Below, in pieces: positions 6,163 through 28,081 of a stretch of 32,000 nt of DNA (positions within the stretch are counted from its first letter, which is position 1; each line of letters starts with the position of its first letter). The notes under the pieces are model-generated. The model was not told the origin of the DNA. It ran no database searches and saw nothing but the letters and a program-made list of their open reading frames with translations. Position numbers and translations under genes: made by a program. The stretch spans positions 3,289-35,288 of the forward strand of contig JBDRKR010000018.1 in NCBI GenBank assembly GCA_043813805.1, in the 5' to 3' direction. Source of the DNA: Candidatus Nealsonbacteria bacterium (lineage in GTDB: Bacteria; Patescibacteriota; Minisyncoccia; Minisyncoccales; MHMH01).

Positions 6163-6827
6163 AAATTAAATTATTAGTCGTAGCAATCACCGTGATTATC
6201 TTAACCGTTCTGAGCATAATGGGATTTTATGTTTATAAGCAAATAATCAAACCCGAAGCCAAAGAAAACGTTCCCGCGACAACCGGAGAAGCAGAGCCGG
6301 AAAGTCCGTCAAACGGCGGGGAGGAGATTATTGGAGAAACCGTTTTATTAAAAGACGATTTTGAAATAACGCTGCCGCCGGGTTGGCAGGAAGCAACCAC
6401 CCCTCCTGAAGGAATTTTAGCTATGGCTATTGATGGAAAAGAAGATATTTCTGAGGGTGTTTTCCAAAAGCTTGATTTCAGGACCAATTTCTCCGTCAAG
6501 AGAGACGACATGAAAAAATACGCGAATTTTAATAATTTAGGAGACTATATCACCAGCATTAAAACTTCTTTGGTTCAAATGGTGCCCGGCATCAGTTTTG
6601 TCCAGGAAGAGCAAAAAGTGATTGACGGCCGCCGGGCTATTTTGATTGAGTGCTCGAGCCGCCAGGAAGAAGCCGACTTTAAAACACTATTGGTCTTCGT
6701 TGAAGACAGCGACAGCATCGTTTACGCAATTTCCTTCAATACCTTCCAAAGTTCCTGGGCAAGCTACCGAGACACGTTTTATCGGATTGCCGAGAGCTTT
6801 AAATTAAAATACAAAATCGAGCTTTAA
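6159..6827 (+). CDS. Hypothetical membrane-anchored protein
   Basis: 4-nt overlap with the preceding gene. N-terminal TM helix LLVVAITVIILTVLSIMGFYVY is followed by an acidic linker and a soluble domain. No family recognised. Confidence 0.6.
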   Translation: MKIKLLVVAITVIILTVLSIMGFYVYKQIIKPEAKENVPATTGEAEPESPSNGGEEIIGETVLLKDDFEITLPPGWQEATTPPEGILAMAIDGKEDISEGVFQKLDFRTNFSVKRDDMKKYANFNNLGDYITSIKTSLVQMVPGISFVQEEQKVIDGRRAILIECSSRQEEADFKTLLVFVEDSDSIVYAISFNTFQSSWASYRDTFYRIAESFKLKYKIEL

Positions 6828-8119
6828 GATTTTTTAATAGAATGGAAAAAGTCGTAAACGATTTTTCCATTTTTATTAAGAAAGCCCGCTTTCATGTCAT
6901 ACATCGGGAAATTGGTGAAAACGGTGCCCGCCGTAATCGTCTTTTTGTAATTTTCTCCCTCATTGATTTCGTTGTGGAAAAACAGCCCGTTTTTCAGTTT
7001 CAGAAAATCAAGACGGTTTTCCAGCCCGATTCTTTTTATTTTGCCTTTTTTTAATTCGAAAAATCCGCCCGGAATCAATTTCGTTATCGTGTGCTCGGGC
7101 AATTCAATGCACATCTGGGCGCCTTGGAATGAGTTTTCAGGCAAGGAATCAGGTTTCGCCGCCGGATAATTTTTCTGGCAGAAGTGATTTAAAAGCAGGC
7201 GCATGAAATCGGTACGGCCGTGCAATTCTTCCGTGGCGATGATTTGAGGGGTAGCCGCGGTGATTCTCGGGTTGCATTCAAGAAAGAAGATTTGATCGTT
7301 TTCCGACAGAATAAAATCTAAATTAAACATGCCCGTCAATCCTTCCTGTTTTATTTTTTCGGCTATCCTGATTAAGTCCCGGGTTATTTTTTCATAAAGT
7401 TCTTTTGTAAAAAACTGCGAAGGCAGCCACTGGATGCCGATAAAAAGACCTAAGGGCCCGCCGTTCGGATTTTTTAAAAAGCATTGCCGGTTCAGGGCTG
7501 AAAGGCAGACGTTTTCTTGATCAACAAAAAGAGAAGCGCCGCAAGCCATTCCTTTTTGATACTCGCGGGCCAAGAGCGGCAGATTAAGCGTTTTGAGTAT
7601 TTTTTGGAAAGATTTTTCCGAGTCGGCAAAAAACGTTCCTTCGCCTCCGGTGGATTTAGGAATTTGAACAACCGTTTGGAGAAAGGGCAGCAGGGCTTTT
7701 TTAGACCTCAGGATCGCGCTTTTGACCGAGGGGATTTTTATCTTTTTCAGGAAACTATCGAAAAACAGCTTGTCCTCGAATTTTTCGGCAAGCTGATAAG
7801 ACGGAGAGAGAATAGCGATGCCGCTTTCTTTACTCCATTCTTTGAGGAACTTCGTGGAGTTCCTTAAAAAGAGGCAATTTATCTGATATTTTTTGAGTTG
7901 CGGGGAGAGATTGGAGTTTTTAAAAACGTCCTCGCCTTTCAGTTCCGAGAAATTAATGCCCTTTTTTTTGAGCTTAATGGGAATAATGTTAGTCAAACGG
8001 AGCTCAGTTTGGGCTATTCTCATTTCTTCGGAACCTTCGAGGCAAATAGCATAAATTTCATATGTTTTCTCTTGGGAAAACACCAAGTCCAAACTTCTTA
8101 AGAAGTAAGCGACTTTCAT
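6824..8119 (-). CDS. ATP-grasp domain ligase
   Basis: C-terminal ATP-grasp core GMFNLDFILSENDQIFFLECNPRITAATP (E-x-N Mg/ATP motif). A Gly-rich PKSTGGEGTFF loop is present. Length is 431 aa. Confidence 0.75.
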   Translation of the reverse strand: MKVAYFLRSLDLVFSQEKTYEIYAICLEGSEEMRIAQTELRLTNIIPIKLKKKGINFSELKGEDVFKNSNLSPQLKKYQINCLFLRNSTKFLKEWSKESGIAILSPSYQLAEKFEDKLFFDSFLKKIKIPSVKSAILRSKKALLPFLQTVVQIPKSTGGEGTFFADSEKSFQKILKTLNLPLLAREYQKGMACGASLFVDQENVCLSALNRQCFLKNPNGGPLGLFIGIQWLPSQFFTKELYEKITRDLIRIAEKIKQEGLTGMFNLDFILSENDQIFFLECNPRITAATPQIIATEELHGRTDFMRLLLNHFCQKNYPAAKPDSLPENSFQGAQMCIELPEHTITKLIPGGFFELKKGKIKRIGLENRLDFLKLKNGLFFHNEINEGENYKKTITAGTVFTNFPMYDMKAGFLNKNGKIVYDFFHSIKKS

Positions 8120-8125
8120 GGAGGG

Positions 8126-9244
8126 TCAGTTTTTTTGGTACTTAAAGAGGGGAACGGCTTCAAACCAGCGGCTTTTCCAAGTGTAGTTGTTCTGCAGGAA
8201 GTCGATCTTTTTGAAACCCAATTTAATCGCATCGTCGATTTCGATAAGATTGAAGTAGTTGCCGATGCCCGGGAATTCGGCTACGTTGTAGCCGCATTTG
8301 ACGGCGAAATAAGTATTATTGAATAAAGCAATCAAATCCACGCCGGCGATTTTACCGTTGATTTTAATGGTGATCATGCGGTTTTTGTAAGAACTGCCGC
8401 CAAGATTGATGACTTGTCTGAAAGCTTCGATTCTCCTCGGATCTTGCCAGTCGGGCACCTGGTTTTTATCTGTCAGTCTTTTCTTGGATATTTCCACCAA
8501 ACTGTCAAAGTCGGCGGAATTATCGATGATAATCTCGGGATTTTGCCTTTCAATTCTGCGCCGGTCTTTTCTCATACTGTGGCGTTCGTTCTTTTTAAGA
8601 GTGGCCAAATAATCCTCGTGGTTGGAGAATTTTTCGAGATGCAAAACATATTTAGCCGAATCTGGCTCAAAAGCAACAGTTTTACCTAAAAGAAAAGCTG
8701 ATTTGGGCGAGATGGCGTTAAGTAACAGGGGAGAAGGAGCGGCTTCAAGCAAAATAGGGATGTATTGAGGGTCTTTGCTGAAAAAAACAACTTCTTCCTG
8801 CCAATCGCTGCCAAACCACTCGTATCTTTTTTCATCCGGATTGTACCATAAGGGCAGTAAAGCCAGATTTTCTTTGTCGTTTTTTAATAAGATGAAATGG
8901 GGCCTGTAATGATAGCCCAGATAGAAAGCGAACCGGAATTCCCAAGTATCAAACAGGGTTTTGGGGCTGGCTAATTCTTGCCACAATCGATGACAGTGCT
9001 CAATCTCCGAAATAATCTCTACATCCATATCTTCCGGCAAAGCCAGCCTGCCGAAGGACAGTGGGTCAACAAAAAAAGAACCTAAATGTTGCAGAGGTTC
9101 CCTTTGCCCAACCTCGGTTCTATTATCAGGAGGTTCAATCTCGTCCTTATTTATAATATTAGAGAAACCAGAGTTATTCGAAGATTCGAAGTTACTCATA
9201 GTAAGCTTAGTGCTCAATTTTGCACTATGCTGACAGGATAGCAT
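8126..9244 (-). CDS. GNAT-fold acyl/peptidyl transferase, CelD/BioF2/FemAB-like (Acetyltransf_6 type)
   Basis: Central KKNERHSMRKDRRRIERQ block, then the family-typical tail KINGKIAGVDLIALFNNTYFAVKCGYN...YTWKSRW. The true start may be ATG 9199 (MSNFESS). The 9244 ATG sits inside a TTGACA-N17-TATCCT promoter-like sequence. Confidence 0.65.
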   Translation of the reverse strand: MLSCQHSAKLSTKLTMSNFESSNNSGFSNIINKDEIEPPDNRTEVGQREPLQHLGSFFVDPLSFGRLALPEDMDVEIISEIEHCHRLWQELASPKTLFDTWEFRFAFYLGYHYRPHFILLKNDKENLALLPLWYNPDEKRYEWFGSDWQEEVVFFSKDPQYIPILLEAAPSPLLLNAISPKSAFLLGKTVAFEPDSAKYVLHLEKFSNHEDYLATLKKNERHSMRKDRRRIERQNPEIIIDNSADFDSLVEISKKRLTDKNQVPDWQDPRRIEAFRQVINLGGSSYKNRMITIKINGKIAGVDLIALFNNTYFAVKCGYNVAEFPGIGNYFNLIEIDDAIKLGFKKIDFLQNNYTWKSRWFEAVPLFKYQKN

Positions 9245-9430: not shown

Positions 9431-10387
9431 TCAATTTTTAATATTTTTACCGCTATGGAATTGGCGGTGGACGTCTCTCAGACGCTTATTGGTTACGTGA
9501 GTATAAATTTGGGTTGTGGCAATGTTGCGATGGCCCAGAAACTCCTGGATGCTTCTTAAATCAACGCCTTGGTTTAAAAGATCTGTGGCGTAAGAATGAC
9601 GTAAAGTATGGGGGCTCGTAAAAATCGGCACGCCGCCCAGTACCGCGTACTTTTTGACGATTCTTTCAATGGACCGGGCGGTGAGGCGGGTGTCGGCATC
9701 GGATCTTGACCGGAAATTGGTGAACAAGGCCTTTTCTTTGTCTTTTCTGGTTTCCAGATACTTCTTTATCCAGCCGAGCGCCCTTTCGGAAAAATAAACG
9801 GTCCGGGGATGGCTGCCTTTGCCGATGATGCCAAGCTCCAGATCTTTCTTATCTTTAACGTTACCGAATTGTTCTTTATTCAAAGCAACTAATTCCGCGA
9901 TTCTTAAGCCCGTAGAGAAAAGAGCTTCTAAAATAGCCCTGTCCCTTAAGCCGTCTTTTTCTGCGGTTTTAGGGGCCATCAGGAGCTTCTCGACCTGGTC
10001 CAGATTAAGGAATTTGACCGTTTTTTCGGCCCTGGCGTCCTTTGGGAGGGCTATTTTGTCCGGAGGCACCGAAACCACGTCTTTAGCCACAAAATAGCCC
10101 AAAAAGGCCCTTAAAGCGATAAGATAGTAGTTCTGGGTAACCTTCTTCAAGGAATGGCCGTTTTGGCTCTGAAAACGGCTTAAATACAGCCTATAAGCCC
10201 AGATATGCTCTGAAGTCAGTTCTTGGGGCTTTAGATCGTCCTTATGGGTGGTTTTGAGCCACAAGACGAACTTGTCCAGATAACGTTTATAGTTTTCCTG
10301 GGTTTTATCGGCCAAACCTTTTTCCACCTCGCAATAATCTAAAAAGTCGGGAATATGTTTAATAATACTTTTATCTGATTCAATCAT
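9431..10387 (-). CDS. Tyrosine site-specific recombinase, XerC/XerD family
   Basis: N-terminal SAM-like core-binding domain. C-terminal catalytic HTLRHSYATDLL, LGHRNIATTQIYTHV (R-H-R-Y set). Confidence 0.9.
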   Translation of the reverse strand: MIESDKSIIKHIPDFLDYCEVEKGLADKTQENYKRYLDKFVLWLKTTHKDDLKPQELTSEHIWAYRLYLSRFQSQNGHSLKKVTQNYYLIALRAFLGYFVAKDVVSVPPDKIALPKDARAEKTVKFLNLDQVEKLLMAPKTAEKDGLRDRAILEALFSTGLRIAELVALNKEQFGNVKDKKDLELGIIGKGSHPRTVYFSERALGWIKKYLETRKDKEKALFTNFRSRSDADTRLTARSIERIVKKYAVLGGVPIFTSPHTLRHSYATDLLNQGVDLRSIQEFLGHRNIATTQIYTHVTNKRLRDVHRQFHSGKNIKN

Positions 10388-11288: not shown

Positions 11289-11650
11289 TAAAATAACCCT
11301 TTAAACCTTTCCCAAAGATCTTGCTGCATTTCCTGTTTTTCTTTCTGAAATTCTTCTTTTACATCCGGCGTTTTTTGGCCAGTCAGCCCCCACAGCTTTC
11401 CCCACAAACTCTCGACTTTTGATCCTAAAGTATTTGCCCAAAAACTTTTCGTCCAAATCCACATATTCCACCAAATAGGCAGGGCTTGGTTGTACCAGAT
11501 GTCTTTAATGGCGTTAGGCAGGCGTTCCAGTATGTTCAGGCCTAAGATTTTGCTATCTTCTACAGTTTGAGGAACTTCAGCTTTGGTCCATGCCGGGAAA
11601 AAGGTTATAAATACGCTAATTAATAAAATGACCGTAATAACTTTTTTCAT
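11288..11650 (-). CDS. Hypothetical secreted or membrane-associated Trp-rich small protein
   Basis: Signal-peptide-like MKKVITVILLISVFITFFPAWTKAEV. Trp-rich core PIWWNMWIWTKSFWANTL. Overlaps gltX (ATGA) and the ZIP start. Confidence 0.6.
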   Translation of the reverse strand: MKKVITVILLISVFITFFPAWTKAEVPQTVEDSKILGLNILERLPNAIKDIWYNQALPIWWNMWIWTKSFWANTLGSKVESLWGKLWGLTGQKTPDVKEEFQKEKQEMQQDLWERFKGLF

Positions 11651-13080
11651 TTTATTAGGGCTCTCGCCTCTTTAAGCCTTCTTAATGTTTTTTCTTTGCC
11701 CAAGATTTCCGCTATTTCAATCGGGCCGGCTGAAGCTTTTTTACCGGTCAAAGCCACTCTTAGGGGCCACAACACGATTCCCCTGTCCCCTGTTTTCTCG
11801 GCTTCCTGTATTAAAACTTTTTCCAAGTTTTCCTTGGCCCAGTTTTTTTCACTTATTTCAGACAATAATTTATCTAATTTGTCAATCGAGGTGGCCATTT
11901 TCTGGTCATCAGCGCCTTTCCATCTTAAAAGCTCTTTATCATAATTTAATTTATCCTGGAAAAAGAAATCAGCCAGCTCTTTTATCTCGGAAAGTTTTTT
12001 GAGGCGCTCTTGATGAAGCCCCACGATTTTTTTGAGAAAGTCTTTTTCCGCTTCGGGCAGATAAGGTTGGCAAAGCTCGGTTAATTCATCCAGCGGTTTT
12101 TGCCTGATGTAAAAACCGTTAAGATAATCCAGCCTTTTAATATTGAAAATAGCTCCGGCCTTCTGGATTTTATCCAATGAAAACTCTTGTCCGAGCGCCT
12201 TTAAAGAGTAGATTTCCTCGTCGGTTCCCGGATTCCAGCCCAAAAATGCCATGAAATTAATGAGCGTTTCCGGCAAATAGCCTTCTTCTCTGTAATTTAA
12301 GACCGAAACTGCCGCGTGCCTCTTAGACAGCTTGCTTTTGTCGGGGCCCAAAATTAAGGGCAGGTGGGCGTATTTGGGCTGCGGGAAACCTAGGGCCTCT
12401 TGGATTAGGATTTGCTTGGGCGTGTTGGGAATATGTTCTTCTCCCCTAATAACGTGAGAGATTTTCATTTCAAAATCATCCACCACTACGGCAAAATTAT
12501 ATAAAGGTGTTACTAGGTCTTTGGCAATCACAAAATCGCCCATTAATGAAACATCAAAAATTATCTTGCCACGAATTAAGTCTTGAAAACAAATTTTTTC
12601 TTCATGAGTTTTAAACCTAACGATGGCGGGTTTACCTTCGGCTAGCCGTTTTTTAACTTCAGCCTCGGGTAAGTCGCGGCATTTGCTGCTGTATTTTGGT
12701 GCTAATCCCCTACTTAATTGGTCTTGTCTCATAGCTTCTAATTCTTCTTCGTTGCAAAAACAATAATACGCTTTATTTTCTTTTAAAAGCTTGTCTAAAT
12801 ACTGAGTATAGGTCGGGGTTCTTTCGGTTTGTCGAAAAGGCCCTTCATCCCATAAAATTCCCAGCCACCTTAGTCCCTCAATTAGGTCTTTTTCAAAACG
12901 CGGTTCCGATCTTTCAAGGTCGGTATTTTCAACGCGTAAGATAAATTTACCACCATTATTTTTGGCGAAAAGATAATTAAAAAGCGCAGTACGGGCGCCT
13001 CCCACATGAAGATTGCCTGTGGGCGAAGGCGCGAATCTTGTTCGTATGTTCTTGGTTATTGTTTTAGTATTATTTAACAT
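11647..13080 (-). CDS. gltX: Glutamate--tRNA ligase
   Basis: RTRFAPSPTGNLHVGGARTALFNYL (HIGH region) and KLSKRH (KMSKS region). Length is 477 aa. Confidence 0.95.
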   Translation of the reverse strand: MLNNTKTITKNIRTRFAPSPTGNLHVGGARTALFNYLFAKNNGGKFILRVENTDLERSEPRFEKDLIEGLRWLGILWDEGPFRQTERTPTYTQYLDKLLKENKAYYCFCNEEELEAMRQDQLSRGLAPKYSSKCRDLPEAEVKKRLAEGKPAIVRFKTHEEKICFQDLIRGKIIFDVSLMGDFVIAKDLVTPLYNFAVVVDDFEMKISHVIRGEEHIPNTPKQILIQEALGFPQPKYAHLPLILGPDKSKLSKRHAAVSVLNYREEGYLPETLINFMAFLGWNPGTDEEIYSLKALGQEFSLDKIQKAGAIFNIKRLDYLNGFYIRQKPLDELTELCQPYLPEAEKDFLKKIVGLHQERLKKLSEIKELADFFFQDKLNYDKELLRWKGADDQKMATSIDKLDKLLSEISEKNWAKENLEKVLIQEAEKTGDRGIVLWPLRVALTGKKASAGPIEIAEILGKEKTLRRLKEARALIK

Positions 13081-13084
13081 ATTT

Positions 13085-14107
13085 TTAGTACTTATCTAAA
13101 GATTTTATTGTGCTGTTGATAACATGCTTCAGAATTTTTACGGGATGACTCGGGGCAAGAGAATGCGCAGTTTCTTCGCATAATTGAATACAATCCGCCC
13201 CATCAATTACAGCATTTGTTATGTCAGATATTTCAGCTGCCCTCGGTATAGCCCTAGTTAATAAGCTAGTAAGAACTCCGGTAGATAAGATCGAAAACTT
13301 ATTTTTTTTATTACATTCTTTTATAATTCTTTTTTGAGCTAAAGCCAATAAACCGTAATCAAAATAGTTTGCTAAATCACCCCTTCCTATCATAATTCCA
13401 TCACTAGCGTCAACGATTTCGACGTAATTTTTAAACCCAATCTCGGTTTCTATTTTAGAAATTATTTTTGTTTTTTTGTTGCCACTTTTTATTAATTTAT
13501 TTTTCAAGATATTAATCTCTTTTTCCCCTTTAACAAAAGATATCGCTATCCAATCAGTTGGATTATGTTTCGCGAACTCAACCACGTTGTCAGTGAGTGG
13601 ATTATTAATATCGGAATCAACAATATTATTTTTACCCGCGATTGCAAGACCTTTTCTAGCATATAAAGTAGATGGGTATTCAGAAATGACCTTAAGCTGT
13701 TTTGAATTATTAGACACTATTTTAAAGACAGCATCTCCATCGCCGCATATTAATTTATCACCAGTTTTACAATAATGTAAAAATTCATTAGAAGCAATGG
13801 GAAGCGTTTGTTCATCGGGAGCTTGATTGTTTTTTGTAATCTTGTATATTTTTCCAGGGACAATATTTATTGGATTAGTATAAAAATCACCAAATCTGGG
13901 TTTATTACCAGGTAAATCAAGTAAAATTTTAATGTTCTCAAAGTTATTTTTTATATAGAAAACGATATTCTTAATCGAGAGAGATATTGACGGTTCCCAA
14001 AAAGGAATTCGAACAATATTAATTCCCGACTGGAGTAACTGTTTAAGTCTAATTTTATCTTCAATAAATGGTTTTATTGTAACGCTAATGAATATTTTTT
14101 TCATCAA
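13085..14107 (-). CDS. Pyruvate kinase homologue, A/B barrel domains only (no C-terminal regulatory domain)
   Basis: LLDLPGNKPRFG (cf. LLDTKGPEIRTG), ISKIETEIGFKNYVEIVDASDGIMIGRGDL, PRAAEISDITNAVIDGADCIQLCEETA. It ends about 130 aa earlier than canonical PK. AT-rich codon usage. Confidence 0.75.
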   Translation of the reverse strand: MMKKIFISVTIKPFIEDKIRLKQLLQSGINIVRIPFWEPSISLSIKNIVFYIKNNFENIKILLDLPGNKPRFGDFYTNPINIVPGKIYKITKNNQAPDEQTLPIASNEFLHYCKTGDKLICGDGDAVFKIVSNNSKQLKVISEYPSTLYARKGLAIAGKNNIVDSDINNPLTDNVVEFAKHNPTDWIAISFVKGEKEINILKNKLIKSGNKKTKIISKIETEIGFKNYVEIVDASDGIMIGRGDLANYFDYGLLALAQKRIIKECNKKNKFSILSTGVLTSLLTRAIPRAAEISDITNAVIDGADCIQLCEETAHSLAPSHPVKILKHVINSTIKSLDKY

Positions 14108-15186
14108 GATGGTGTTATCGACAATCCAAAGTGGCTTTTTCTTTTAAGCGGTTGCATCTTTTTTATACGTTTATAGGAAATATGTTCCGATTCCTTAAAA
14201 ATTTTAATGGCTAATTTTAAGTCTTTCTTAAAACCACTTATTTTGCCGGAGCCAAATGCATTCCAGCGACACGTTGCGATTCTTAAGTCAGGTAATATTT
14301 GAATATCATACAAACCTTCATGACACGGCAAATAGTTACATTTACTACAGATCGTTTTTAAGTTATATCTTGACCCCTGGTGAATGGATTTAAGTGTTAC
14401 AAATATATTATCTATTTTATAAACCAAAACGGGAATTCCATAACTTTTTGCATAATCGTGAAAATATTTTTTATCAGAGATTTGCTCTAACTTTGTCTCT
14501 AGGCTTTTAAATGGGTAATGAAGGGTATCCCAATCATTGCGAGGTAACGGTACGGATGTCACTTCCTGTAGTTTTAAATCAATGTTTCTTTTTTTGCAAA
14601 ATAATATCATGTCTTCAACCTCTCCGCTATTATAATTAGTAACTACCATATTTATTCTCATTAAAAGACCATACTTTAAAAGCAGATTAATATTATCCAT
14701 CACTTTTTTGCGTTGTTTTTTGGTTGAGGAAAGTCTATCAAAAATATCCTCATTTAAGGAGTCTAGACTTACAGCAACATGTAAGTTGTCTAAGTTTTTA
14801 ATTTTAACTAATTTACGGATATGTTTGTCGATTAGCGCACCGTTCGTGTTAATTAATAAATATTTATTCTTATTTAAGATATATTTTATTGATTCGATTA
14901 TGTGTTTATATGCAAATGGTTCGCCTCCAGTTAAACGAAATTTTTCTATCCCGAGGTCTGTTGCTATATCAACTATTTTTTTAAGTTCGTTGAAATTAAA
15001 TTCTTTTTTTCGGCTTATAGTAACTTCTCCACCGTTTCCACAATAAATACACCTAAATGGACATGTCTGAGTTAACGCTAGGGTGGCGTAGGGAATACAC
15101 TTAAGTGTTGGATTAGTTACAATCCCCTTTTTCAAATTATTTCTTTCTACAAGATTTTCTTCTTTTATAATGGGGTGATGGGACAC
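14104..15186 (-). CDS. Radical SAM enzyme, MoaA (GTP 3',8-cyclase) family-like
   Basis: CX3CX2C at C42/C46/C49 (TCPFRCIYCG), FRLTGGEPF, LINTNG, VSLDSL, and a C-terminal Cys cluster CSKCNYLPCHEG...ATC. GTG start at 15186 with TATAAT only 3 nt upstream, so the start is uncertain. Overlaps the next gene by 4 nt. Confidence 0.8.
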   Translation of the reverse strand: MSHHPIIKEENLVERNNLKKGIVTNPTLKCIPYATLALTQTCPFRCIYCGNGGEVTISRKKEFNFNELKKIVDIATDLGIEKFRLTGGEPFAYKHIIESIKYILNKNKYLLINTNGALIDKHIRKLVKIKNLDNLHVAVSLDSLNEDIFDRLSSTKKQRKKVMDNINLLLKYGLLMRINMVVTNYNSGEVEDMILFCKKRNIDLKLQEVTSVPLPRNDWDTLHYPFKSLETKLEQISDKKYFHDYAKSYGIPVLVYKIDNIFVTLKSIHQGSRYNLKTICSKCNYLPCHEGLYDIQILPDLRIATCRWNAFGSGKISGFKKDLKLAIKIFKESEHISYKRIKKMQPLKRKSHFGLSITPS

Positions 15187-15260
15187 AATATTATATTACT
15201 CTATCTAGGTTTTACTTCAGCGCTTGACATAAATCTCTGTTTTCAGCTTAACATAGTTTT

Positions 15261-15299
15261 AAAAAATGAAAAATCCCTCGACCGGCCGTTAAGGGATTT
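15261..15299 (-). terminator. Intrinsic terminator after the methyltransferase gene
   Basis: Minus-strand stem AAATCCCT/AGGGATTT (8 bp) with a 13-nt loop, followed by TTCATTTTTT. Starts 6 nt after the stop codon. Confidence 0.65.
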
Positions 15300-15305
15300 G
15301 CTTCC

Positions 15306-15833
15306 TTACTTTTTATACAAATATACGCCGTCTTCATCCTTAATTTGCGGCCAGGTAGGAAAACAAAAAGTATTAGAAACAACTCTGGCATTATTTTTGA
15401 GTTCTCTTTCTAATTTTTTTTCCAATTTTTTCATAACATAATCAAAGCCATAAACAGCAATAATATCAAACTCGAAAAGATCTTCATTCCAAAAATTCTT
15501 CCAATGAATAAAAGCTTTTCTTTTCAGTCCGGCCTTATTAATGTTTCGTCTGGCTCGCCAGACCAATGCGGGATTTATTTCGTAACCGTGGGCTTCTGCG
15601 CCCTTTTTGGCTAAAGCAATAACCAATCTTCCGTCGCCGGCCCCTAAATCCACTGCTTTTTCTCCCGGTTTAATTTCGGCAAGTTTGATTATCTTTTTTA
15701 TTTTCTCCTCTTTGCTTGAAACATAAATTGCTCCCCAAAATAAGAAAGGGTTTGTAAATATTAAAAATAGAAAAACAAACAAAAACAATAATAAAACAAA
15801 AAGGCAGAAGAAAATTATAATTACTAAATTCAT
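15306..15833 (-). CDS. Membrane-anchored class I SAM-dependent methyltransferase
   Basis: N-terminal hydrophobic segment, then motif I VDLGAGDGRLVIALAKKG and motif II-like AHGYEINP. Confidence 0.8.
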   Translation of the reverse strand: MNLVIIIFFCLFVLLLFLFVFLFLIFTNPFLFWGAIYVSSKEEKIKKIIKLAEIKPGEKAVDLGAGDGRLVIALAKKGAEAHGYEINPALVWRARRNINKAGLKRKAFIHWKNFWNEDLFEFDIIAVYGFDYVMKKLEKKLERELKNNARVVSNTFCFPTWPQIKDEDGVYLYKK

Positions 15834-15842
15834 AGAAGAGGC

Positions 15843-15871
15843 TACGCGAAAGAGCTAAACCTCTTTCATCT
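15843..15871. repeat. Copy of the 29-nt palindromic hairpin element (murG stop codon lies inside it)
   Basis: Minus strand AGATGAAAGAGG-TTTAG-CTCTTTCGCGTA. The first 15 nt are identical to the copies at 19844 and 21394. Confidence 0.6.
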
Positions 15872-25985: not shown

Positions 25986-26411
25986 TTACTTCTTAAAAAT
26001 TTTTTTGAAAAAGACGTACATCAGAGTAGCCACGCAAAAACCGACAAAACAAGCCAAAAATATCAACAAAACCATTATTAAAATAAAAATCCAGGCAAAA
26101 TCAACAAACTTGCCGAAATAAATGAATAAAAAACCTAAAAAGAGTAGTCCCCCTGTCATACCGGAGACAAAGTTTAATTCTCCCGATTCTTTTCGAATCG
26201 GTTTTAATCTTTCTTTCAGCAGCTTTCTTAAAACTAAGGCATGAAATTGATAAGGGATATTAAGCTTCACGGAAAAAATTCCCAAAATCATCAAAAGGCT
26301 AACCGCCAAAACCAGCCAGTGACTATGAATTAAAAAAGCAATCAGAGTTAAGGTTCCGTAAGTGGCTCTGGAAAATCTCAAAGAGCTGTCGTAAATTTGG
26401 CATTGTTGCAT
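25986..26411 (-). CDS. Hypothetical 4-TM membrane protein (possibly DUF4395-like)
   Basis: Four hydrophobic segments. The family assignment is only an impression from the N-terminal SRATYGTLTLIAFLI region. Confidence 0.55.
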   Translation of the reverse strand: MQQCQIYDSSLRFSRATYGTLTLIAFLIHSHWLVLAVSLLMILGIFSVKLNIPYQFHALVLRKLLKERLKPIRKESGELNFVSGMTGGLLFLGFLFIYFGKFVDFAWIFILIMVLLIFLACFVGFCVATLMYVFFKKIFKK

Positions 26412-26415
26412 ATTT

Positions 26416-26850
26416 TTATGTTTTATTTTTATTTATCTTTGTTTCGTACGTGGTAGCGTCTAAATTTATTCGATTTGTAAGTTTCCAAAGACTATTTGCG
26501 CGTGTGGGCGAGAAGATTTCTCTTAAATCGGTTTTATCAATAAAATAGAGGTCAGCGTTTTTGATATCTTCCGGTTTCTGATCGGATACGACCCTTATTA
26601 ATAAAGAGATAATTCCCCTTATCATTAAAGATCCGCTGTCGATATCATAGAAGACCCGTCCGTCTTTAAATGCGGAATGAAACCAGGTTTTTACCTGGCA
26701 TCCCTTGATGAGGTTGTCTTCTGTTTTGTATCCCGGATCAATCGGAGGCATTTTTTTCCCCAACTCAATCAGATAATTGTATTTATCCATCCAATTGTCC
26801 AAAATTTTGAATTCGCTGATAATTTCTTCCTGTGTTTCTTGTATGGTCAT
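26416..26850 (-). CDS. sufE: SufE/CsdE-type cysteine desulfuration (sulfur acceptor) protein
   Basis: WMDKYNYLIELGKKMP and the KGCQVKTWF active-site Cys context. ATG 26850 (MTIQETQEEII) aligns with SufE N-termini. The track start at 26880 overlaps sufS by 23 nt. Confidence 0.85.
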   Translation of the reverse strand: MTIQETQEEIISEFKILDNWMDKYNYLIELGKKMPPIDPGYKTEDNLIKGCQVKTWFHSAFKDGRVFYDIDSGSLMIRGIISLLIRVVSDQKPEDIKNADLYFIDKTDLREIFSPTRANSLWKLTNRINLDATTYETKINKNKT

Positions 26851-26857
26851 GTATTTC

Positions 26858-28081
26858 TTATTCAAACATTTTTTGAACATTTTTCAGCGCTTCACAGAAG
26901 TAATCTATTTCCTCAAAGGTATTGTAAAAAGCCAAAGACGCTCTGATGGTACCTTCAATTTTATAGTGTTCCCAGAGAGGATGAGTGCAATGATGTCCGA
27001 CGCGCACGGCAATGCCCATTCTGTCTAAGATCATTCCGGCATCATATGAATGAACATTGTTTAATAAAAAAGAGAAAATACAAATTTTGTTTTCCGCCGT
27101 GCCGTACAGCTTCAGTCCGTTTAAAGCCGTGAGTCCGGCTGTTGCATGGTCCAGCAGTTCTTTTTCATAATTTTGTATATTATTTAATCCTATACCCGCC
27201 AGGTAATCCAGGGCTACGCCCAATCCGACGGCGCCAATGTAATTAGGAGTGCCAGCTTCAAATTTAAAAGGTAGGTCATTATAGGTGGTATGTTCAAACT
27301 TCACCCGCTCAATCATGTCTCCCCCGCCCTGGTACGGGGGCATTTCAGACAACCAGCGTTCTTTTCCGTATAAAACCCCTATTCCCATCGGTCCATATAC
27401 TTTATGCCCTGAAAAAGCATAAAAGTCGCAATCCATATCCTGAACATCAATATTTCCGTGTTGAATCGCCTGAGCTCCGTCTATCAGGACGGGAATGTTG
27501 TTTTCGTGCGCAATGGTTATGATTTCTTTGACGGGATTTATGGTGCCAAGGGAATTTGAGATGTGATTAACGGCCACAAGTTTTGTTTTGGAATTGATTA
27601 ATTTTTTATATTCATCCAGCAATAATTCACCCCTATCATTAATGGGAATCACTTTCAGTTTTGCGTCTTTCCGTTTGCACATTATCTGCCAGGGAACAAT
27701 ATTGGAATGATGCTCCATCTCAGATACGATAATCTCATCGTTCTCTTTGACATACGCTTCTCCAAAAGAATAGGCCGCCGCATTAATGGAAGCCGTGGCC
27801 CCGTAAGTAAAAATTATTTCTTTATTGGAGCGAGCATTCAAATAATCTTGAACCTTTTTTCTGGCCAATTCATACCTTTCAGTCATTTGTTCGCTTAAAT
27901 AATGAATCCCCCGGTGGACATTGCTATTTTGTTCAGAAAGTAATTTATTCGTGGCATCTATAACAATTTTGGGCTTCTGGGTGGTGGCCGCATTATCGAA
28001 ATACACAAGGGGTTTCCCGTAAATCTTCTGATCAAGTATCGGAAAATCCTTCCTTATTTTTGTTACGTCAAATTTGTACAT
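26858..28081 (-). CDS. sufS: Cysteine desulfurase, SufS type (class V aminotransferase)
   Basis: PLP-Lys context FSGHKVYGPMGIGVLYG, catalytic Cys context RVGHHCTHPL, FDNAATTQKP N-terminus. Confidence 0.93.
   Translation of the reverse strand: MYKFDVTKIRKDFPILDQKIYGKPLVYFDNAATTQKPKIVIDATNKLLSEQNSNVHRGIHYLSEQMTERYELARKKVQDYLNARSNKEIIFTYGATASINAAAYSFGEAYVKENDEIIVSEMEHHSNIVPWQIMCKRKDAKLKVIPINDRGELLLDEYKKLINSKTKLVAVNHISNSLGTINPVKEIITIAHENNIPVLIDGAQAIQHGNIDVQDMDCDFYAFSGHKVYGPMGIGVLYGKERWLSEMPPYQGGGDMIERVKFEHTTYNDLPFKFEAGTPNYIGAVGLGVALDYLAGIGLNNIQNYEKELLDHATAGLTALNGLKLYGTAENKICIFSFLLNNVHSYDAGMILDRMGIAVRVGHHCTHPLWEHYKIEGTIRASLAFYNTFEEIDYFCEALKNVQKMFE

Follow-up and report, generated by a model that had tools for sequence, protein, structure and literature searches.

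Radical SAM and pyruvate-kinase-like genes inserted at gltX in a Candidatus Nealsonbacteria genome: a reduced member of a mobile B12-radical-SAM-centred cluster

In a 32-kb stretch of DNA from a metagenome-assembled genome (MAG) of Candidatus Nealsonbacteria, hereafter the window, we analysed two adjacent genes on the minus strand, one encoding a MoaA-like radical S-adenosylmethionine enzyme (rSAM; 14104..15186, 360 aa, GTG start) and the other a pyruvate-kinase-like protein (PK-like; 13085..14107, 340 aa from a TTG start, deposited as a 339-aa protein from an ATG at 14104). The pair is a reduced member of a larger mobile gene cluster centred on B12-binding rSAM enzymes, and its link to gltX, the gene of glutamyl-tRNA synthetase (GluRS; 11647..13080, minus strand, 477 aa), is central. 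An original prediction, made from the sequence alone, had recognised both open reading frames (ORFs), but missed the insertion in gltX. The overlap of 4 nt that it reported applies to the TTG start of the PK-like ORF, whereas the deposited ATG start leaves an overlap of 1 nt; the gap of 4 nt between the PK-like stop and the gltX ATG could be confirmed. In the predicted operon, gltX is the third gene.

All rSAM motifs quoted in that prediction are present, namely C42/C46/C49 (CX3CX2C), KFRLTGGEPF, INTNG and C280-x2-C283-x4-C288-x17-C306, and most of these positions, among them C42/C46/C49, are invariant in 41 family members. The radical SAM core (PF04055, 88 bits) is the only Pfam domain found, while Mob_synth_C (PF06463), which true MoaAs have, is absent from this protein and from every family member. 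Scores against the MoaA equivalog models remain far below the cutoffs (TIGR02666, 126 vs. 284 bits; NF001199, 111 vs. 231 bits; overall 111–126 bits against cutoffs of 231–325) and stem from matches to rSAM residues 35–250 only. Database searches place the protein in a discrete family (P0001–P0080, >170 bits), followed next by true MoaAs at ≤94 bits, and it carries the family signature of invariant K82, R84, R177 and K205 and a C-terminal CxxCxYxPCHEGLYD...CRW. The family is rare, comprising about 80 clusters, with occurrences in 4 of 185,579 species representatives (from Bacteroidia, an Actinomycetota MAG, Bryobacteraceae and Nonomuraea) and at 20 metagenome loci; searches of IMG/VR, INPHARED phages and PLSDB plasmids returned matches at the level of MoaA and no family members. 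Compared to its homologue in the closest relative (70% identity; locus L172 among the related loci, which are numbered with an L), the rSAM gene has a ratio of non-synonymous to synonymous substitution rates (dN/dS) of 0.13, from which we conclude that it is under purifying selection.

The AlphaFold2 model of the rSAM protein has a predicted local distance difference test score of 91, and its top full-length match in the PDB is MoaA (TM-score 0.61–0.68, 20% identity), with SuiB, viperins, BlsE and DesII among the further structural matches. Like MoaA, the protein thus combines this full-length fold with an N-terminal CX3CX2C motif and a C-terminal cysteine cluster at the equivalent place, and it has basic residues at the MoaA positions K69/R71/K163/R192, which we take to be the triphosphate-binding positions of the MoaA–GTP structure; the corresponding K82/R84/R177/K205 are invariant in the family when aligned with MoaAs. 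C280-x2-C283 and C306 align with the auxiliary-cluster cysteines of MoaA (CX2CX13C), but are spaced by 22 residues and accompanied by an extra Cys288. A conserved 9-residue insert, YxPCHEGLY, follows the CX2C and brings in a fourth cysteine. Alignment with six true MoaAs further revealed that Arg17 is replaced by Thr, Arg266 by an invariant Asp294 and Arg268 by a variable residue, and that the C-terminal GG motif is missing. These three arginines and the GG motif define the GTP site and the SAM-cleavage trigger of MoaA (PMC12625886).

With Mob_synth_C, Arg17/266/268 and the GG tail missing and the equivalog scores below cutoff, the protein has a MoaA-like fold, but is not a MoaA. The original assignment to the MoaA family, with GTP bound at the auxiliary cluster, is therefore not supported. 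Since the triphosphate-binding positions are retained, an NTP (nucleoside triphosphate) substrate is plausible, and the protein probably binds NTP in a MoaA-like manner, while it is probably not guanine-specific. The protein had also been thought not to serve molybdenum cofactor (Moco) synthesis, in agreement with its failure against the MoaA models and with the absence of moaC, moaB, moaDE and moeA from the 32-kb window and from every related locus; the partners of the family are B12-rSAM, NUDIX and PK-like proteins instead of MoaC or other Moco proteins. Assignment as a SPASM/twitch peptide maturase was rejected, as PF13186 is absent, maturase models score 58–73 bits against cutoffs of 380–850, and the tight operon contains no small ORF.

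In the PK-like protein the four PK blocks quoted earlier are likewise all present, and its short length was borne out: it ends after the A and B domains, with PF00224 (167 bits) as its only domain and PF02887 absent. Yet C-domain-less PKs are frequent in the candidate phyla radiation (CPR), so that the truncation in itself is unremarkable. Against the PK equivalog model TIGR01064 the protein reaches 205 bits, compared to a cutoff of 306. In PKM2 numbering, R73, D113, R120, K207, K270, E272, D296 and T328 are retained, whereas N75 is replaced by P, S77 by W, Q329 by G and S362 by C. These changes are common to all members of the subfamily and occur neither in canonical PKs nor in the short PKs of CPR. 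The altered motifs of the subfamily are TIGP to TIKP, RxNFSH to RxPFW, GPK to GNK, KGxNxP to KG(L/I)(A/S)I, RGDLGxE to RGDLxxY.DY, ATQ to STG, PTRAE to PRPAE and MLSxET to IQ(L/F)CEET. An exhaustive profile search over 1.84 billion representatives yielded four PK-like clusters above 530 bits and one at 292 bits sharing the signature, and below these approximately five clusters the scores drop to ordinary PKs. The protein also carries Leu113/Lys117, the signature of K+-independent PKs (PMC4284704, PMC8835810). It resembles these enzymes, including their C-domain-less CPR forms, in the barrel and B domain, in Leu113/Lys117 and in the catalytic Lys/Glu/Asp/Thr, and differs from them in the subfamily motif changes, in the score below the equivalog cutoff and in a context of rSAM genes rather than of glycolysis. 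These data support the view that the protein is no ordinary glycolytic PK and that its nucleotide/K+ pocket has been remodelled, as far as can be judged from residue replacements.

The original prediction treated the two genes as a cassette forming one unit. Their linkage stands, since PK-like genes of the subfamily adjoin rSAM genes in 7 of the 8 contexts, all but L006, whereas the pair is not the conserved unit, as PK is lacking in L172, where the order is murG ... rSAM–gltX. The core partner of the rSAM family is instead a B12-binding rSAM, with or without NUDIX. A module of NUDIX, B12-binding rSAM, MoaA-like rSAM, second B12-type rSAM and PK-like genes, in this conserved order, was found in L003/L004, L092, L005, L175 and L178, and is headed by a glycyl-tRNA synthetase (GlyRS) gene in three diverged instances. 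Outside the clade of the window, a B12-rSAM gene adjoins the MoaA-like rSAM gene in 20 of 26 non-redundant loci. Both are fused into one protein of 797 aa in L176 (14253–16646), where the second rSAM gene overlaps the PK-like gene (6661–9020) and the cluster also holds an ABC exporter, PhoU and a PPDK/PEP-synthase gene. The window rSAM belongs to a separate clade together with those of L172, L088 and L173, in which there is no B12 partner, and a HamB/Ski2-like helicase follows the rSAM gene in L088. The window thus represents a minimal version with neither B12-rSAM nor NUDIX. The pairing of PK-like genes with rSAM genes from two distinct clades points to a functional tie between PK-like and rSAM proteins, which we consider supported, but not obligate.

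The wider cluster presumably resembles, in its combination of B12-rSAM, NUDIX and a phosphoenolpyruvate (PEP)-using enzyme, the pairs of B12-rSAM and phosphohydrolase known from oxetanocin (OxsB/OxsA) and the logic of PolH/NikJ. The comparison is one of architecture, with no sequence relationship shown, and unlike these systems the window has no B12-rSAM, no hydrolase and no enolpyruvyl transferase. PADLOC, run on all module proteins, gave generic matches only and called no system, and a literature search found no description of an rSAM/PK-like cluster, in line with the earlier statement that the pair matches no described system. Several further observations were made at the related loci. Five of them, belonging to one clade (L100 and L104–L107, e.g. 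L107 9851–10264), carry a conserved protein of 112–137 aa between the MoaA-like rSAM and B12-rSAM genes, for which no Pfam or PADLOC match was found. In L006 (7456–13246), the PK-like gene has no adjacent MoaA-like rSAM gene. Its flanks carry genes for two NUDIX proteins, a dCMP deaminase and a HAD hydrolase, and an rSAM/SPASM protein and a TehB-like methyltransferase are encoded 2.6 kb away. Upstream of the L176 cluster are genes for an nSTAND1-WD40 NTPase and a NERD/UvrD protein, and in L173 (260–1060) the rSAM gene overlaps at its start with that of a BPL/LplA-type ligase (BPL_LplA_LipB, 266 aa).

The position of the pair within gltX became apparent from comparison with relatives. Many Nealsonbacteria have homologues 80–84% identical to the GluRS of the window, and a cassette-free collinear relative, represented by GCA_001819295.1 and three metagenome contigs, shows the order murD-224aa-ftsW-murG-[183-aa ORF]-gltX-121aa-240aa-integrase. 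Nucleotide identity between window and relative is 79% through murG to position 15861 and 75% from 13038 onward. Between these segments, a 46-nt island at window 15210–15255 is 85% identical to L181 6976–7021, which corresponds to the gltX promoter and first codons of the relative. This remnant of the gltX promoter and 5′ end (15201..15255, minus strand; ATG at 15230, nine codons, MSSAEVKPR, then a stop) now resides 15 nt upstream of the rSAM start. An independent sample, L172, contains a gltX 5′ remnant of 40 codons upstream of rSAM (353–475) and a full, diverged gltX after it, so that there, too, the cassette is placed inside gltX.

Composition changes over the same region. GC content is 30–34% over 13001–15500 compared to about 42% in the rest of the window, and GC content at third codon positions (GC3) is 0.255 for the PK-like gene, 0.285 for the rSAM gene and 0.312 for a neighbouring methyltransferase gene, i.e. 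4–5 standard deviations below the 0.476 ± 0.043 of the other 32 window genes. The low GC noted previously was therefore confirmed by computation, with a block that is larger than had been described, as it also takes in the methyltransferase gene (15306–15833) and the first ~600 nt of gltX. Within gltX, the first four blocks of 150 nt have a GC3 of 0.30–0.36 and the later ones of 0.42–0.56, and amino-acid identity to the GluRS of L181 drops in the first ~180 residues. gltX is thus apparently a mosaic, with 5′ ~600 nt (about 12481–13080) of low, cassette-like GC and a native-like 3′ part. Foreign composition, together with absence at the same site in the collinear relative, supports the earlier proposal of a horizontally acquired segment, and is explained most simply by recombination of an rSAM(-PK)-gltX unit into gltX, with a relative of lower GC as the donor. 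A repeat search around the cassette and the PK-like gene found neither flanking repeats nor att-like sites, and scans of the window with Rfam (at gathering thresholds) and for tRNAs gave no match, hence no riboswitch, T-box or tRNA integration site. An XerC/D-type tyrosine recombinase encoded 3 kb away (9431–10387) was considered as integrase of the cassette and rejected, as it occupies the same position in cassette-less relatives. The murG–gltX interval itself (window 15306–15865; L181 6254–7000) is a variable slot in Nealsonbacteria, occupied by the transmembrane-anchored methyltransferase gene in the window, by a 183-aa ORF with no Pfam match in the relative and by the gltX remnant only in L172; the 183-aa ORF is unrelated to the methyltransferase.

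We propose, with slightly less than even confidence, a model in which an imported rSAM–PK–gltX unit carries out a generic nucleotide tailoring with PEP-dependent phosphorylation. The imported operon segment, comprising rSAM, PK-like and 5′ gltX sequences, would separate the native promoter of gltX from the native body of this gene, and the rSAM and PK-like genes would be co-transcribed with an essential tRNA synthetase gene. The MoaA-fold rSAM would bind a nucleoside triphosphate and perform radical chemistry on it, with a base that is probably not guanine; the invariant Asp in place of MoaA Arg266 would be a fitting partner for a base that carries an amino group, for instance adenine or cytosine. 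The PK-like protein, in which the catalytic set for PEP/Mg2+ is kept and the acceptor pocket rebuilt, would most likely transfer the phosphate of PEP to a nucleotide of the pathway, which could be the substrate as a nucleoside di- or monophosphate (NDP or NMP) or else the modified product. The pair would derive, in minimal form, from a mobile cluster that occurs in DPANN, CPR and a few other bacteria, with the order (aminoacyl-tRNA synthetase)–NUDIX–B12 rSAM–MoaA-like rSAM–second B12-type rSAM–PK-like, and this cluster would yield a modified nucleotide. The nucleotide-modifying module of the original prediction accordingly retains a plausible NTP substrate, judged by conserved residues, while membership in the larger B12-rSAM cluster had been overlooked.

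Several points weigh against this model. Base and reaction are guesses from a residue replacement. As B12-rSAM and NUDIX are lacking in the window, the minimal pair may have a different function or may be a decaying remnant, although the dN/dS of 0.13 speaks against decay. The rSAM does not depend on PK, given that the closest relative has none, and in the full module the PK-like gene adjoins the second B12-type rSAM gene rather than the MoaA-like one. A rebuilt pocket would, moreover, be needless in a PK that merely regenerates NTP. Finally, the composition step could stem from an assembly in which two co-occurring Nealsonbacteria were merged into a chimeric MAG, since conserved sequence, that of murG and of gltX, borders the low-GC block; in this case the position of the cassette would remain unchanged.

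Aminoacyl-tRNA synthetase (aaRS) genes and peptidases of the S66 and S51 families are recurrent neighbours of the rSAM family. A Pfam census of 149 ORFs within 5 kb at 27 loci comprised 22 Radical_SAM, 11 NUDIX, 10 B12-binding, 11 tRNA synthetase, 5 PK, 5 methyltransferase and 2–3 AsnB-like ORFs, 2 each of Peptidase_S66 (a third lies just beyond the 5-kb range) and Peptidase_S51, and 2 each of the non-ribosomal peptide synthetase (NRPS) domains AMP-binding and Condensation. The synthetases include two prolyl-tRNA synthetase (ProRS) genes in tandem in L001 (10532–13455), the arrangement HAD-S66-GluRS-MetRS in L099 (13669–18987), the GlyRS-headed modules and, in L107 (57–13010), four aaRS genes in 13 kb together with S66, APH and PHP, the four being two tandem ProRS and two class IIb enzymes, of which one has no anticodon domain. 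S66 peptidases occur in L003, L099 and L107. In L003 (4737–12385), the genes for GlyRS, NUDIX, three rSAM, PK-like and S66 all have a GC3 of 0.31–0.40 compared to 0.20–0.24 for most flanking genes, so that synthetase and peptidase appear to travel with the module. The association of aaRS, S66 and S51 genes with the rSAM family is robust. It may be functional, with the synthetase as resistant target or ligase, or it may result from the way of integration, with the aaRS gene as homology anchor.

The functional variant leads to an alternative that we consider unlikely, namely that the cluster makes an aaRS-directed antimetabolite, an ATP-derived or aminoacyl-adenylate-like compound, with the associated aaRS allele as resistant target or ligase. 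We know of no such aaRS-directed compound. A detoxification of the product by the S66 (MccF-like) or S51 peptidases, with the window as warhead-forming core plus its GluRS, is to be regarded with the same doubt. The frequency of synthetases in the census is consistent with such a product, as are the island GC3 of GlyRS and S66 in L003, the arrival of the 5′ half of the window gltX with the cassette, the ABC exporter of L176 and the NRPS and AsnB-like genes near the Nonomuraea rSAM locus. Peptidases of the S66 (MccF) and S51 families are known immunity enzymes that detoxify microcin-C-type aminoacyl-nucleotides (PMC9239234), which lends weight to their presence in the three S66 loci and to the two S51 genes. 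The enrichment of aaRS genes is nevertheless partly background, as these genes are dense in tiny genomes (a second one lies 10 kb off in the window itself), and their adjacency could also come from integration by homologous recombination. Peptidase, exporter and NUDIX are lacking in the window, and a toxin pathway that is constitutively co-transcribed with the sole gltX would be awkward. An extended form, to which we give a somewhat lower probability still, combines these elements into a mobile, aaRS-anchored module that carries its own aaRS allele, spreads by recombination in the aaRS gene and makes an aaRS-directed antimetabolite, with the PK-fold protein as a recruited PEP-dependent nucleotide phosphotransferase.

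A viperin-like antiviral defence, in which the rSAM would make from an NTP an analogue that terminates chains or is toxic in another way, and the PK-like protein would supply or activate nucleotides like the kinases associated with prokaryotic viperins, appears improbable. NTP-binding residues that the rSAM shares with MoaA and viperin, viperins among the structural matches and weak matches to hidden Markov models of prokaryotic viperin (pVip) point in this direction, together with a patchy, mobile distribution across phyla and neighbours such as the STAND NTPase/NERD genes (L176), a HamB-like helicase (L088) and toxin-antitoxin or transposase genes. In common with loci of pVip plus nucleotide kinase, the pair has a predicted NTP-acting rSAM, sometimes beside a phosphotransferase, and is mobile and patchy. 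However, the similarity is that of generic radical SAM proteins (55–68 bits): PADLOC pVip models match the radical SAM core only, with 58–63 bits, and the NCBIfam viperin model NF038283 scores 55 against a cutoff of 180. The window rSAM furthermore has a second predicted Fe–S site, which viperins do not have, and its partner is of PK fold rather than a P-loop NMP kinase. The cassette is located in a housekeeping operon instead of a defence island, PADLOC is blind to the pair and calls no system, the viral and plasmid collections hold no family members, and the B12-rSAM, NRPS and AsnB contexts look biosynthetic. The analogy to viperin plus kinase drawn in the original prediction is therefore reduced to generic radical SAM similarity.

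Modification of RNA, tRNA or a translation factor, with the rSAM and possibly its partners acting on tRNA or 5′-triphosphate RNA, would explain the recurrent aaRS linkage, but is in our view very improbable. The NUDIX proteins show low-scoring similarity to RNA pyrophosphohydrolases, a Ski2-like helicase follows rSAM in L088 and a BPL/LplA-type ligase is found beside rSAM in L173, all of which would be compatible with such a role. Against it stand the lack of an RNA-binding domain, a family too rare for a function in translation (4 of 185,579 species representatives) and the poor fit of PK, peptidase, exporter and NRPS neighbours. That the two genes are simply the moaA and the glycolytic pyruvate kinase gene of this genome is hardly tenable and largely refuted, for although relatives are auto-annotated as 'MoaA' and 'pyruvate kinase' and short PKs are normal in CPR, both proteins score under the equivalog cutoffs, the MoaA-defining residues and domain are missing, the window has no Moco genes, collinear relatives lack the cassette, whose GC3 is foreign, and the PK subfamily, with changes found in neither canonical nor CPR PKs, is tied to rSAM clusters.

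Two uncharacterised enzyme families with clear signatures emerge, a MoaA-fold rSAM predicted to lack guanine recognition and a PK-fold enzyme dedicated to rSAM pathways, and under the preferred model of nucleotide tailoring genome-reduced CPR and DPANN organisms would exchange a multi-rSAM cluster for the tailoring of nucleotides. The mode of integration is unusual, with the cassette placed between promoter and body of an essential aaRS gene and bringing part of gltX along, and it would tie expression and retention of the cassette to gltX. Beyond this, the aaRS genes and microcin-C-type immunity peptidases hint that there may be a new group of nucleotide metabolites directed at translation; an aaRS-directed antimetabolite, if true, would mean that ultra-small CPR/DPANN genomes encode a novel class of nucleotide natural product or of immunity system.

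Upstream of the pair lies the methyltransferase gene mentioned above (15306..15833, minus strand), coding for a small class I SAM enzyme with an N-terminal transmembrane helix and the Pfam domains Methyltransf_31/12/25. It reaches 70 bits against a cutoff of 200 for the NCBIfam archaeal protein-lysine methyltransferase and 71 bits for mad2 of PADLOC. It is parted from the rSAM–PK–gltX unit by a terminator-like hairpin (15261..15298, minus strand; AAAUCCCUU...GAGGGAUUU followed by a U-run), identified from sequence and fold, which was not called by a consensus terminator scan because of its long loop, and which has a counterpart at the equivalent position in L181. We infer that the hairpin acts as a terminator. 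Since this hairpin lies between them and the methyltransferase gene is missing from L172 and the other rSAM loci, the methyltransferase is probably outside the rSAM operon and no partner of the rSAM. The rest of the window holds the usual CPR housekeeping genes, among them the dcw cluster, ribosomal proteins, PyrG, SufSE and AsnRS/AspRS. A second, milder low-GC stretch (25986–26880; GC 0.35, GC3 0.39–0.42) covers a DUF4395 gene and sufE, beside sufS.

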